64,000 nucleotides of DNA from Gammaproteobacteria bacterium (GCA_965206325.1 OZ242208.1:186603-250602); one strand, 5' to 3'; shown: positions 2 through 53,258, numbered from the stretch's first letter. Program-made: numbers and translations. The notes: a model not told the origin generated them from the letters alone.

Positions 2-2546
2 GTGCAGCGCGACAATCCGGAAATGCAAAGGCGGACTCAGGAGGTTATCAATCAGTGCGGCGGAAAAGACAATCCGATTCTTGCCCTGCATGATGTCGGT
101 GCCGGCGGAATCGCCAACGCCGCCGCCGAATTAGCGGCAAGCAATGGACTCGGATTTCAAATTGATTTGCGCGCAATTCCTGCCGCCGAATCGGGAATGA
201 CGCCGGCGGAAATTTGGTGCAATGAATCCCAGGAAAGATTTCTCCTTGCGATTCTTAAAAAGGATTGGCGCCGTCTGCAAAAAATATGCATGCGCGAAAG
301 ATGCCCCGTCGCCGTCATCGGCGAAACAACATCCAACGGCGATGCCGTCGTTTTTGATTCTGTTCTTAAGGAGGGGGGGGGGGGGATGCCGGTTGCAATT
401 CCGATTCGCGCTGTGATTGGCGGCGTTCCTAAGGCAATGCGGGAAACGATTTCGCATCGTTCAAAATTTTCGCCGCTTAATCTATCGGGAATTGATTTGC
501 GCGAAGCGGCGTATTGCGTGCTGCGTCATCCGGCGGTTGCGGACAAAAGATTTTTAATAACTATCGGCGACCGCACTGTCGGCGGATTGACGGCGCGCGA
601 CCAAATGGTCGGAAGATGGCAAACCGCCGTCGCCGATTGCGCCGTAATTCTCGCCGATTACAAGCATTATCACGGCGAAGCAATGGCGGCGGGCGAGCGT
701 CCGGGAATTGCGCTTTTATCGCCCGCCGCCAGCGCGCGCATTGCCGTCGGCGAATCATTAACGAATCTCGCCGCCGCCGATGTTATCAATTGGAAAAGAG
801 TTAAACTGTCGCTTAATTGGATGGCGAATTGCGCAGCAAAAAAAGGCGAAGCGGAATTAGTCGAAGGCGTTAATGCATTAACAAATGGATTCTGCCGGCA
901 ACTTGGCATTTCAATTCCGGTCGGAAAAGATTCGCTTTCAATGGCGATGCAATGGAAGGAAAACAATAAAGAATACAAAGTGCGCGCGCCGATGACGGCG
1001 GTCGCCGTTGCTTTTTCCAAAGTTAATGATGCCCGCCGCACTTGGACTCCCGTCCTTTCCGAAGAGGATGAAACAATTCTAATGCTTGTTTCGCCGCAAG
1101 AATCAAACCGACTCGGCGGCGGAATTTTATCTCAGGTTTTTTTCCGAAACGGCGGAGAACCCCCCGATGCCGACGCCGATTCGCTTGGCAAATTCTTGGA
1201 TGCACTTTCGGAATTGCGGCGGCAAAATATCGTTCTTTCTTATCATGATCGCAGCGACGGCGGAATGTTCGCCGCTGTTTGCGAAATGGCGTTCGCCGCC
1301 AATTGCGGCGCGACTCTCGCATTAGATGCATTAATTCAACCCGCGCAGGGAATGGACGCCGACGGCGTAGAAATGTCATCCGATTCCTTTTCCGCCGCCG
1401 GAATTGAATTGATGCTGGGCTTTCTGTTCAATGAAGAATTAGGCGCATTAATTCAAATTCGCCGCCGCGATGCCGCCCGCGCGCTGGATATTTTTTCGGC
1501 ATGCGGACTTCCCAAGGCCGCGCAAACTGTCGGCTGGCCGACTCAAAATCGCCGCGTGATTATCGTTAGAAACGGCCGCACAGTTTTGGATGAATCACTT
1601 TCCGATTTGCGCCGCGCATGGGGCGAAGCATCTTCGGCAATTGCCCGCGCCCGCGACAATCCGCTGTGCGCCGACGAAGAAGCCGCGCGCGATTTTGATT
1701 CCGACCCCGGACTTTTTTCGCGCATTAATTTCAACCCATCGCAAAACATCGCCGCGCCTTTTATTGCGGGCGGAATTCGTCCGCGCGTCGCCATTTTGCG
1801 CGAGCAGGGAACAAACGGCCATCGCGAATTAGCCGCCGCGTTTAATCGCGCAGGATTTGAAGCGCGCGATATTCATATCAGCGATTTAGAATCGGAAGGG
1901 GGGGGGGGGGGACTTAAGGAGTTTTGCGGAATCGCTTTGGGGGGGGGTTTTTCTTTCGGCGATGTTCTCGGCGCCGGACGCGGTCTTGCGCTTTCCATTC
2001 TTCATAATCCGCGCCTGAAAGAAATGTTTGCGGAATTTTTTAATCGCGATGATTCTTTTTCGCTCGGCATTTGCAACGGCTGCCAGACGCTTTCGCTGCT
2101 GCGTCCTTTGATGCCCGAATCCGATTCGTTTTCTTTTCCGAAATTTATGCGCAATCGCTCCGAGCAATTTGAGGCGCGATTTGTGATGGCGGAAATTCTG
2201 TCTTCGCCGTCGTTGTTTTTTAATGGGATGGCGGAATGCTGCCTACCGATTTCTTCCGCGCACGGCGAAGGCCGCGCGATTATAGAAGGGGGGGGGGGGG
2301 GGGGTAATTGCCGCCGCGCGATTTGTGGATAATAACGGCAATGCGACCGAGCGATATCCTTTTAATCCTAATGGTTCGCCCGGCGGCGCGATGGCGTTTT
2401 CGTCGCCGGACGGACGCGCGACAATTATAATGTCGCATCCGGAGCGGGTTGTCCGCGCGGTGCAGAATTCATGGCATCCCGCAGATTGGGGCGACGATTC
2501 GCCGTGGCTGCGAATTTTCCAAAACGCCCGCAAATGGGCCGGCTGA
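2..2546 (+). CDS. purL: Phosphoribosylformylglycinamidine synthase (large PurL); 5'-truncated by window edge, frameshifted at G17 tract 2288-2304
   Basis: Motifs [49 protein letters not shown] in ORF 2..2332. The C-terminus (YPFNPNGS...SHPER...[12 protein letters not shown]) continues in another frame to the stop at 2546. Confidence 0.95.
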
Positions 2547-2565
2547 ATCATCGCCGGACGAATTA

Positions 2566-2574
2566 TGGTATAAT
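2566..2574 (+). promoter_or_regulatory. Extended -10 promoter element (TGGTATAAT) upstream of the nodI-like gene
   Basis: TG-N-TATAAT consensus about 60 bp before the ORF start. Confidence 0.55.
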
Positions 2575-2634
2575 GCGGACAGGAACAAAAATGAATTTCA
2601 TTGATTTTCAACAGGGTGTTTTCACCGTCGTCAA

Positions 2635-51515: not shown

Positions 51516-51528
51516 AAGCGACTCTTTT
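51499..51528 (+). terminator. Rho-independent terminator at the end of the DUF262-HNH gene
   Basis: AAGAGTCGC, 10-nt loop, GCGACTCTT followed by TT. Confidence 0.6.
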
Positions 51529-51605
51529 ATCTGCGCCTTATTTCCCGACATTGAGTCGGATGGCTGCGCTTTGCGAATCCGCATCGCGTTTTAATCGCGC
51601 GCGAA

Positions 51606-53258
51606 TTGGATGAAGTCCCCGCCGTTTTGCACGAAGCGGAATCCGAATGCATCAGCGGCAAGCACGCCGTCGGCTTTATTTCCTACGAAGCCGCGCCCGC
51701 CTTTGACGACGCCCTTGCCGCTTTCGCATCCCCCCCCCCCCCCCTGCCGATGGCGTGGTTCGGCATTTTCGATTCGCCGACAAAATACCCCCCTCCCCTT
51801 GCGAAAGAATATATCGCCGGAAAATTCCGTCCGCAAATTACAAAGGAAGAATACCGCCGCGCCTTTGATAAAATTATGTCGCTGCTTAAAGCGGGCGACG
51901 CTTATCAAGTTAATTTCGCTTTTCCGATGGAGGCGAAATTCATCGGCGATTCCGAATCCTTTTTTATGGATTTAATTTCCGCCCAGCCGACCGAATGGGG
52001 GGGGTATATTGCGTCGGAGGAATGGGCGATTTGCTCGGCGTCGCCCGAATGCTTTTTTGTCCGGGAAAATGATTCGCTGATGTCGCGCCCGATGAAAGGC
52101 ACGCGCCCGAATTTGCCCGGCGCCGCCGACGAATTAAAATCCGCCGCCAAAGACCGCGCCGAAAATTTAATGATTGTGGATATGATTAGAAACGACATGT
52201 CCAAAATTTCCGGCGCCCGCAATGTGCGCGCCGAAAAATTATTGGAGATTGAATCGCATCCGACGGTTGTGCAGATGACCTCCGCCGTCGCCTGCGAAAC
52301 GCGCGCGCCGCTTGAAGAAATTATGTCGGCGCTTTTTCCGTGCGCTTCGGTCACCGGCGCGCCGAAGGTGTCGGCGATGCGGGCGATTCGCTCTTTGGAA
52401 AATCGTCCGCGCGGGGTTTATTGCGGCGCCATCGGCAGAATCTTTCCCGGCGGACGCGCGCAATTTAATGTTGCGATTCGCACTGCAATCATAAACAAGA
52501 AATCCGGAATCGCGCGCTACTTTGCGGGGGGGGGGGTCGTCGCCGATTCCGTTTGCGAAGATGAATTCGCCGAATGCATCGCCAAATCGCAGATATTAAA
52601 AAATACCGGCGATGCGTCCTTGATTGAAACAATGCGCGCAAACGGCAAAGGCGAGATTCCTCTTCTCATCCGCCATCTTGGGCGAATGAAAGAATCCGCG
52701 CACGACCTTGGCTTTGATTTTGACGAGAAGGATTTTCATTCCGCCGTCGCGCGGGCGATTAATAATTTTCCCCCAATAAAAAACGAAGGCGCGAAGATTC
52801 GCTTATTGCTTTCCATAGACGGAAAAATTGACGCCGAATGCTCCCCCCCCCCCTCCTTGCTGAAGAAAGGAGAATCGGTGCGCGCGATTCTGTCGGCGGA
52901 ATTAATGTGGAGCGGCAATCCGCTTTTGCGATACAAAACAACGCGGCGCGAAATTTATAATCGCGCGATGATCCGCGCAAAAGAATTAGGATTTGACGAC
53001 GCAATTCTAATTAATGAACGCGGCGAAATAACCGAAACATGCATCGCCAACATCGCCTTGTCGGAGGGGGGAGGGGGATTAATCACGCCGCCTTTGCAAT
53101 GCGGACTTTTGCCCGGCGTAATGCGCGCGGAAATGATTGCGCGCGGCGAATTGCGCGAGGGAATCATTCGCGGAAAAACCCTGCTCGCCGATGATGCGAA
53201 AGTTTATCGCCTTAATGCCCTGCGCGGAATTGAGCCGCTTGCCGTCGTCGCGGAATAA
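51606..53258 (+). CDS. pabB: Aminodeoxychorismate synthase component I fused to an aminotransferase class IV (PabC-like) domain
   Basis: GDAYQVNF, SPE.F, RPMKGT, KDRAENLMIVD.IRND, SVTGAPK, then H..R, YKTTRR, N.RGEITE....N, GLLPGVMR. Confidence 0.9.
   Translation: MDEVPAVLHEAESECISGKHAVGFISYEAAPAFDDALAAFASPPPPLPMAWFGIFDSPTKYPPPLAKEYIAGKFRPQITKEEYRRAFDKIMSLLKAGDAYQVNFAFPMEAKFIGDSESFFMDLISAQPTEWGGYIASEEWAICSASPECFFVRENDSLMSRPMKGTRPNLPGAADELKSAAKDRAENLMIVDMIRNDMSKISGARNVRAEKLLEIESHPTVVQMTSAVACETRAPLEEIMSALFPCASVTGAPKVSAMRAIRSLENRPRGVYCGAIGRIFPGGRAQFNVAIRTAIINKKSGIARYFAGGGVVADSVCEDEFAECIAKSQILKNTGDASLIETMRANGKGEIPLLIRHLGRMKESAHDLGFDFDEKDFHSAVARAINNFPPIKNEGAKIRLLLSIDGKIDAECSPPPSLLKKGESVRAILSAELMWSGNPLLRYKTTRREIYNRAMIRAKELGFDDAILINERGEITETCIANIALSEGGGGLITPPLQCGLLPGVMRAEMIARGELREGIIRGKTLLADDAKVYRLNALRGIEPLAVVAE

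Follow-up and report, generated by a model that had tools for sequence, protein, structure and literature searches.

A stretch of 64,000 nucleotides from a Gammaproteobacteria bacterium (GCA_965206325.1 OZ242208.1:186603-250602; in the following "the window", 56% GC) carries ten runs of 11 or more G or C residues, of which nine lie within open reading frames (ORFs) and the remaining one 1 nt 5' of an ATG. The coding tracts are found in housekeeping genes, such as purL, fdhD, radA, uvrB and a pabB-pabC fusion. The organism is taken to be an uncultured betaproteobacterium. The pattern is regarded here as an unusual trait of the genome rather than an artefact; its cause is unproven. The explanation which we prefer, with a probability of about 0.58, is that the tracts are lineage-specific G:C mononucleotide microsatellites, expanded by slippage and persisting in genes under selection for the reading frame.

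Run lengths and chance expectation

Of the whole genome, which has about 2 Mb, the DNA seen represented about 70 kb, and the census of run lengths covered the 64-kb window. A previous inspection by a model, made from the sequence alone (the sequence-only reading), had listed ten long G/C runs and put A/T runs at about 8 bases or less. Both observations were borne out: all ten runs were located at exactly the coordinates listed, and the maximum length of A/T runs was 8. Four further runs of 9 bases were found (G9 at 1939-1947, G9 at 4547-4555, C9 at 26280-26288 and C9 at 35985-35993). A Markov expectation, which had been proposed as a check, was calculated with models of order 1-3. G/C runs of at least 11 bases numbered 10, versus 0.002-0.08 expected, which is far above chance; A/T runs of at least 9 bases numbered 0, versus 6-8 expected. 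A G/C run of length 2 had a chance of about 0.16 of being extended by one base, and this value climbed to about 0.8 for runs of 6 or more; for A/T runs it was about 0.35-0.4 and then fell to 0 at length 8. Thus, expansion in this DNA concerns the G/C runs, and those of A/T are truncated. Expanded dinucleotide repeats were not detected in the window with Tandem Repeats Finder, only ordinary short CGG/CGC triplet runs. The density of tracts of at least 11 bases is 10 per 64 kb; by extrapolation, the genome could contain a total of about 300.

As an empirical control, 80 uvrB neighbourhoods from related betaproteobacteria (1.35 Mb) were used. G/C runs of 9 or more bases were confined there to one locus of artefact-like appearance, and in control loci with 50-62% GC (n = 27, 489 kb) the longest G/C run had 8 bases. 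GC content as the cause is excluded by the Markov models together with this control of 1.35 Mb. The sole control locus with long G/C runs, from 11 to 50 bases, was a contig of Paraburkholderia dipogonis (L030); its runs look like a poly-G sequencing artefact of short-read assembly rather than biology.

Occurrence in strains and authenticity

The strain set consisted of about 20 contigs, the circular ones of 1.95-1.99 Mb, and at least 10 came from one ENA metagenome assembly. Their coverage was 4x to 107x and their names were of the metaMDBG style, from which a HiFi origin was inferred. The strains have diverged by about 1% from the window in a star-like pattern; beyond this cluster of near-identical sequences, the nearest UvrB showed 71% identity. 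The same tracts were present at the same sites in the approximately 20 strain contigs and in Logan contigs of runs X1, X3, X6, X7, X8, X9 and X10, which stem from several studies and carry several organism labels. The assembler metaMDBG works with homopolymer-compressed reads, and its polishing step mainly mends homopolymer errors. Because of this procedure, the exact length of the tracts (+/-1) is uncertain, but their existence is real; a platform artefact, which the sequence-only reading had named as a possible refutation, does not agree with the recurrence in about 20 contigs and in independent public runs. In the raw-read run X12 the organism was not present, and only Illumina poly-G artefact reads matched the tracts; among the public RNA runs searched, none contained the organism at useful depth.

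In the coding tracts the total length was either constant or shifted by 3 or 6 bases, and such in-frame changes were seen at 8 tracts or more. The other frequent change was G to A (C to T) inside a tract or at its edge, as in G9AG5, G11AG4, G5AG9 or C6TC10; where the codon phase was worked out by eye, these were third codon positions, which changed GGG to GGA. Within tracts, 21 of 154 columns were segregating, 18 of them by transitions, compared with a background of 3.3% overall and 8.8% at four-fold sites. Shorter runs (G7-G9, A8, T8) were mostly invariant across 8-10 strains, including T8 runs outside ORFs as called here, with the exception of single substitutions, one of which turned an A8 into A7 in two strains, and of expansions of a G8 in a HemJ-like gene (see below). 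Length calls in coding tracts which were not multiples of three were all +1 or +2 and came mostly from contigs with 4x, 8x, 15x or 21x coverage, which fits consensus errors of HiFi sequencing, though some may represent real heterogeneity. One circular genome with 21x coverage had +1 calls in both fdhD and uvrB.

A tract upstream of an adhesin gene behaved differently. This G23 (C23 on the plus strand, 7901-7923; gene on the minus strand) is noncoding and stands 1 nt before the probable start codon (ATG, 7899) of the collagen-like adhesin 1; it occupies a 5'UTR or ribosome-binding position, 3' of a terminator-like hairpin, and not the gene itself, where the sequence-only reading had placed it. 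Its length in six strains was 18, 20, 21, 22, 23 and 24, free of any constraint to multiples of three. Since the coding tracts are bound to such multiples and the adhesin tract is not, frequent slippage appears to be filtered by selection on the frame; purifying selection of this kind had been suggested from the window, and the strain comparison agrees with it. A promoter scan upstream of the adhesin gene detected no sigma-70-like promoter. The tract probably modulates adhesin expression and is a candidate for a classical switch of phase or level variation.

Comparison with a sister species

A sister species, with DNA identities of about 88-90%, was compared at three sites only, using Logan contigs of runs X9 (with a depth in the thousands) and X10. 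At the fdhD site, X10 had C-G13-A without a change of length, although the flanks differed, over 151 bases, by 22 mismatches and 6 gaps. At the uvrB site of X10, a G13 was found in the purine-rich context GAAGAAGA...AGTAAAAG. The purL tract of the sister species was 4 bases shorter than the G17 of the window and was read as G13, in frame. From these positions, the tracts are orthologous and older than the split of the two species. Since they are common to all strains and to a sister species about 10% diverged, they are old and do not stem from a mutator phase of recent date.

The sister species thus had G13 at all three sites (in purL as deduced from the 4-base gap), versus G15-G17 in the species of the window, which hints at a species-specific equilibrium length. 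In X9, at 36855-36869, the depth of flanking k-mers was 1900-2800, and that of k-mers bridging the uvrB tract came to a total of only about 180, divided among five 31-mers; this drop could reflect either many variants of tract length or a sequencing dropout at homopolymers.

Genes and sites affected

Gene identities were obtained by family and structure-sequence searches. They yielded purL, fdhD, radA, uvrB, the pabB-pabC fusion and two collagen-like adhesins, and the gene names in the sequence-only reading were right, with pabB being part of the fusion and the adhesin being collagen-like. Also in the window are secDF-yajC, priA, xseA, moaA, an opp-type transporter, rpoB, rpoC and rplL. The tract-bearing genes purL, fdhD, radA, uvrB, pabB-pabC, lysE and the HemJ-like gene have housekeeping functions, and the adhesin is the sole gene of a surface type. 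The tracts are clustered: seven of at least 10 bases belong to purL, three of these upstream of the window, and five to pabB-pabC. Long G/C tracts were absent from rpoB and rpoC, which together span 10 kb, and from secDF. Among the 16 coding tracts with at least 9 bases, G was on the sense strand in about 12, and the base 5' of the G tract was A in 9 of 10 cases.

Tracts are positioned either in variable loops and linkers or at conserved GG, GGG or PPP motifs. The frame is generally kept in coding tracts, and the products carry Gly4-6 or Pro3-4 in loops or linkers. Alignment with orthologues, which had been suggested as a way to see whether the Gly runs are specific to the lineage, showed that they are, being insertions or parts of variable loops in comparison with homologues. 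The earlier statement that most runs are in frame and add poly-Gly or poly-Pro to loops holds for most of them, but the purL G17 is out of frame, the G23 is noncoding, and the G11 of pabB belongs to a conserved motif and is not an insertion.

Isolated Gly codons were GGG in 12% and GGC in 57% of cases, and the share of GGG climbed to 32-37% where at least three Gly follow each other. GGG being the minor codon, codon preference is ruled out as the cause. As the tracts nevertheless consist of GGG or CCC alone, the homopolymers reflect a property of the DNA and not a choice at the level of protein. Short runs of G7-G9 typically consisted of TGG-GGG-GGN (Trp-Gly-Gly) or Gly-Gly-Gly strings, and it is plausible that such codon strings were seeds for longer tracts.

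Tracts of purL

The following tracts are on the plus strand unless noted otherwise. The purL G13 (373-385) encodes KEGGGGMP, with 4 residues more than PurL of Salmonella, in frame; its alleles were G13, GGAG10, G7AGG (-3), GGAG7 (-3) and G14AG (equal total length), and an additional G14 came from a 4x contig. The G14 at 1898-1911 (SEGGGGGL, 2 residues more than Salmonella PurL) is likewise in frame, with the alleles G14A, G15, G5AG9 and G11 (-3), a +1 call in a 4x contig and a -3 change in run X7. In contrast to these insertions, the G9 at 1939-1947 represents GGG codons of the conserved GG(G)FS motif in the glutaminase domain; it was G10 by substitution in most strains and GGGAG6 in two.

The G17 at 2288-2304 is out of frame in the window, where the ORF stops at 2332; the C-terminus of PurL, i.e., the last approximately 85 residues, runs on in the +1 frame after the tract. 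In Salmonella PurL this part presumably carries the His and Glu of the glutaminase. In-frame alleles were G16 in 5 strains and G11AG4 in 2, and Logan contigs of X1 and X3 also had G16. The G17 was present in the window and in two circular contigs, L091 (34x) and L095 (107x), and another +1 allele, A plus G16, was found in L097 (8x). The three sequences with G17 were not mutual nearest relatives, and no inherited clade with G17 was seen in the strain phylogeny, which was star-like with 36-67 differences per 4.8 kb. At the level of consensus sequences, purL G17 is the one instance in which an "off" state of a housekeeping gene has reasonable support. Coding tracts of 15 or more bases may yield frameshift variants at appreciable frequency, and purL G17 is the best candidate.

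Tracts of fdhD, radA and uvrB

The fdhD G15 (25565-25579) encodes IKEGGGGGIA in a lineage-specific loop and is in frame. Alleles were G15, G9AG5 and, in X1, G16 by substitution; a G16 as +1 change was found in the 15x and 21x contigs only. Just 5' of the fdhD start, the C8 between moaA and fdhD (25041-25048) varied among strains from C7 to C10 with T interruptions, and X6 and X1 had insertions of CCT or TCCT. The radA G12 (27312-27323) is in frame and encodes RGRGGGAK, which belongs to the linker that joins the zinc finger to the ATPase domain; most strains had G12, and L081 had G9 (-3).

The uvrB G16 (36838-36853), also in frame, is located in the linker that precedes the UvrC-binding domain of the C-terminus, at a position where an alignment of 15 relatives contained no Gly run. 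Most strains had A4G15, and the window and L100 had A3G16 of equal total length; X1 had A4G12 (-3). Calls of +1 were obtained for X3, for the 15x and 21x contigs and for one contig of 22.7 kb. Frameshifts at the tract were present in 3 of 10 UvrB protein variants, two of which trace to the 15x and 21x contigs and the third to the 22.7-kb contig. A second tract of the gene, C9 at 35985-35993, represents the GEPPPT motif and was invariant in all strains.

Tracts of pabB-pabC

The pabB C15 (51730-51744; ASPPPPLP) is in frame in a variable N-terminal region; it was found in the window and all 5 strains, and run X8 had T-CCC-T-CCC-T-C6 of equal length. Next to it, the interrupted tract C6TC4 (51787-51798) corresponds to a pure C14, 3 bases longer, in another strain; alleles included C7TC6 and C14, with a total length of 21 or 24. 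The pabB G11 (52526-52536) provides GGG codons of the conserved motif A-G-G-G-(V/I)-V-A-D-S, according to an alignment with PabB of Escherichia coli; its alleles G11, G10A and GGGAG7 were of equal length. In the pabC part, C11 (52843-52853; CSPPPSL, in frame) had the alleles C11TCC, C13 and C14 with equal total length, and G6AG5 (53066-53077; SEGGGGL), which is a pure G12 in other strains, had the alleles G12, GAG10, AG11, G6AG5 and G5AGGG (-3).

Possible origin of the tracts

If slippage under frame selection is the correct explanation, a G/C run which exceeds about 7-8 bases, often starting from a TGG-GGG-GGN or Gly-Gly-Gly string, would slip with a net bias towards expansion and approach an equilibrium of about 12-17 bases, or of 18-24 where it is unconstrained. 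Out-of-frame lengths in coding DNA would be purged by purifying selection, and poly-Gly or poly-Pro would be tolerated in loops, while poly-Lys or poly-Phe from A/T runs would not. Point substitutions would interrupt the tracts, and slippage could restore pure ones. A bias specific for G:C could perhaps stem from a property of the replicase or its proofreader, from inefficient repair of looped-out G:C bases, or from a translesion polymerase.

Several points weigh against this explanation. The sole basis for deducing a high rate of slippage is the adhesin tract together with +1 alleles whose quality is uncertain; the lengths of coding tracts are rather stable, with a near-constant total length in uvrB, and a modest mutation rate would fit equally well. 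The sister species has pure G13 tracts despite flanks diverged by 10-15%, though tract positions are hypervariable within the species; such purity between species would also be expected under selection for pure tracts. The seven tracts of purL and five of pabB-pabC, as opposed to none in the 10 kb of rpoB/rpoC, call for tolerance specific to certain genes besides a uniform pressure, and the density of noncoding tracts is no higher than that of coding ones. Mutation pressure alone does not fully explain the clustering in genes, the excess of polymorphic interruptions combined with purity between species, and the A which precedes 9 of 10 tracts. Because of these three features, selected switching and a function of DNA or RNA structure are kept open as alternatives.

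The tracts could be adaptive contingency loci, in which reversible +1/-1 slippage toggles purL, pabB, uvrB, radA and fdhD for bet-hedging or division of labour between co-resident cells; the sequence-only reading had named many housekeeping genes as potential contingency loci. The frameshifted purL in three sequences (window and the 34x and 107x circular contigs) which are not closest relatives of each other would agree with this, as would the 3 of 10 frameshifted UvrB variants, the 21x circular genome with its two +1 changes, and the retention of tracts in the sister species; moreover, the tract-bearing genes are all conditionally dispensable, the tracts cluster in purL and pabB-pabC, and the adhesin tract acts like a classical switch. 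Yet consensus alleles are overwhelmingly in frame, and the out-of-frame calls are +1 or +2 and mostly from 4-21x contigs, as errors in HiFi homopolymer consensus would produce; Logan contigs show the in-frame G16 of purL, and several tracts encode conserved glycines of catalytic sites, where switching would have no special logic. Contingency in housekeeping genes is therefore unproven, although purL G17 is an exception in that it is also called at higher coverage, and we consider it unlikely. It is about as doubtful that a whole clade of host- or community-associated bacteria, with at least two species and many co-existing strains, keeps pure G tracts of 12-17 bases by the hundreds through selection and not through mutation pressure alone, as reversible switches or elements of nucleic acid structure in housekeeping genes that are conditionally dispensable. 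A function of the pure tracts in DNA or RNA, be it a G-quadruplex or R-loop on the non-template strand, pausing, transcriptional slippage or a binding site, has a slightly smaller chance of being correct. Tracts of at least 15 G are, on general principles, long enough for an intramolecular quadruplex; the sense strand carries the G in about 12 of the 16 coding tracts with at least 9 bases, A is the preceding base in 9 of 10 cases, and purity is kept in the sister species while interruptions are frequent within the species, i.e., polymorphism is in excess over divergence. However, the positions follow no logic with respect to gene starts, ends or domains, lengths vary between 9 and 23, alleles with interruptions are frequent and evidently viable, and tracts with C on the sense strand exist too; purity could be accounted for by purification through slippage, and the comparison was limited to three orthologous sites.

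The sequence-only reading had proposed a mutator state of G:C slippage, with weak mismatch repair as an example; a general deficiency of mismatch repair, by loss or weakness of MutS/MutL, we rate lower still. Under weak repair, G:C runs are the most slippage-prone sequences, and the substitutions inside tracts are mainly transitions. Indirect signs oppose a general defect: A/T runs of 9 or more are missing where 6-8 are expected, runs of A8, T8 and G7-G9 are for the most part unchanged among 8-10 strains, even T8 outside ORFs, dinucleotides are not expanded, and the tracts are older than a species split of about 10%. The ratio of transitions to transversions at four-fold sites among strains (286/128 = 2.2) points in the same direction, as a weak test, since recombination also shapes polymorphism. 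The part of the genome that was covered, namely the window and about 10 kb on each side, contained no genes for MutS and MutL. An artefact of sequencing or assembly, or a plain effect of GC content, is hardly credible. Related contigs are apparently HiFi/metaMDBG products with error-prone homopolymer lengths, and some +1 calls follow low coverage, but the same sites recur in about 20 contigs and at least six other runs of several studies, the tracts are in frame and have shared substitutions inside, and composition is ruled out by the Markov and empirical controls.

Comparison with known systems

Contingency loci with poly-G/C tracts are known from Campylobacter jejuni, Neisseria, Haemophilus influenzae, Helicobacter pylori and Bordetella pertussis; there are tens per genome, in genes for surface structures, restriction-modification or glycosylation, and they switch by length changes which are not multiples of three. 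Similar here are the slipped-strand mispairing and the tracts as such, G:C mononucleotides with a length of about 8-15 bases or more, and the adhesin tract (C18-C24) fits this class well. In contrast, the tracts described above are mostly in housekeeping genes and in frame, orthologous sites are shared between species, and 10 tracts of 11 or more bases occur per 64 kb. The coding tracts resemble contingency loci in their mechanism, but they lack one defining feature, the location in surface genes, and apparently also a second, switching by lengths other than multiples of three; nearly all of their differences are multiples of three or substitutions, and purL G17 is the +1 call with better coverage.

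In insect endosymbionts (Buchnera, Blochmannia), genes frameshifted at poly(A) tracts are reportedly rescued by transcriptional slippage (Tamas et al. 2008). Long homopolymers in conserved housekeeping genes of a bacterium with a small genome, with some copies out of frame as in purL G17, are common to both cases, and by this analogy purL G17 might be rescued at the level of RNA. The endosymbionts, however, have A/T runs, extremely AT-rich genomes and reduced repair, whereas here G/C runs occur at 56% GC and A/T runs are suppressed. Cells deficient in mismatch repair, such as microsatellite-unstable tumours and mutS/mutL mutators, likewise have coding mononucleotide runs as the main targets of indels, with selection on the frame; loss of repair, however, makes tracts erode or shift and affects all classes of repeats, while here only G:C runs are long, and these are stable in evolution. 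Finally, Gly4-6 or Pro3-4 in loops and linkers are reminiscent of low-complexity inserts of poly-Gly or poly-Pro. Inserts selected as protein would permit mixed codons, but here one minor codon is used despite the preference for GGC, which indicates that the DNA homopolymer is what evolves.

As hotspots of frameshifts, long homopolymers are normally eliminated from the coding sequences of bacteria. Here, a lineage has frequent in-frame G:C runs of 11-17 bases in core genes, which persisted across a species split; a literature search found no matching earlier description of such poly-G/C tracts in housekeeping genes. If the pattern is genome-wide, the lineage would be a natural setting in which to ask what determines the equilibrium length of mononucleotide slippage and its specificity for certain bases. 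It would also test the load of frameshifts which a bacterium can bear, perhaps buffered by polyploidy, RNA slippage or cross-feeding, and would raise the question whether housekeeping genes can be phase-variable. Should the tracts be switches kept by selection, the concept of contingency loci would reach core metabolism, with heterogeneity of metabolism and repair in populations. In practice, false pseudogene calls and contig breaks should be expected in metagenome assemblies of this clade; split gene calls for purL, fdhD and uvrB were observed in strain contigs.

Other features of the region

The HemJ-like (UPF0093) membrane protein gene contains a G9 (4547-4555; LFGGGLL), which was invariant in 11 genomes, and a G8 (4574-4581; YGGGW) with in-frame expansion in some strains: its alleles were G11 (+3) in L093, GGGAG10 (+6) in L090 and G5AGG in L098. 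The C9 of lysE/argO (26280-26288; sense G9 on the minus strand, TWGGAVF) was invariant in the six of six strain contigs that cover it.

The adhesin genes (4816-7899 and 8507-10816) both encode N-terminal repeats of the SGxIST type. Adhesin 1 has collagen-like G-x-y repeats, and the counterpart of its end in L097 matches the YadA anchor family. Between strains (L089-L098), the lengths of the two adhesins were 1065-1597 and 788-884 amino acids, and in some strains adhesin 1 was swapped for genes of the HNH_4/P63C type.

The region between radA and an OmpA-like gene (28600-31240) is a strain-variable island. The window has there a PIN-like ORF and a protein of 544 amino acids similar to GmrSD_N; other strains (L081-L088) have a full GmrSD, or TIR together with an NmeDI-like protein, or an OpuA-type ABC transporter. 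The depth of the island in Logan contigs was about 1/10 to 1/4 of that of the flanks, and it looks like a hotspot for defence islands. A second variable slot is located upstream of pabB (50235-51515), with an ORF of 426 amino acids that has only a weak IscB-like HNH match in the window, and with two small ORFs or a GmrSD_N-HNH protein in other strains (L099-L103).

Directly after the uvrB G16, a CGG-rich stretch (36854-36885) encodes KGRRRRRK, and the UvrB linker as a whole is a low-complexity replacement in comparison with relatives. A methyltransferase gene (36967-37749) overlaps the end of uvrB; its product has 233, 238, 246 or 248 amino acids depending on the strain, which suggests a further length-variable region near its end. 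RpoC (53304-58694) and RpoB (58704-63341) comprise 1796 and 1545 amino acids, respectively, versus the usual approximately 1400 and 1340. The profile matches of both proteins are each split in two, which would imply large lineage-specific insertions, and neither rpoB nor rpoC contains a G/C run of 7 or more bases.

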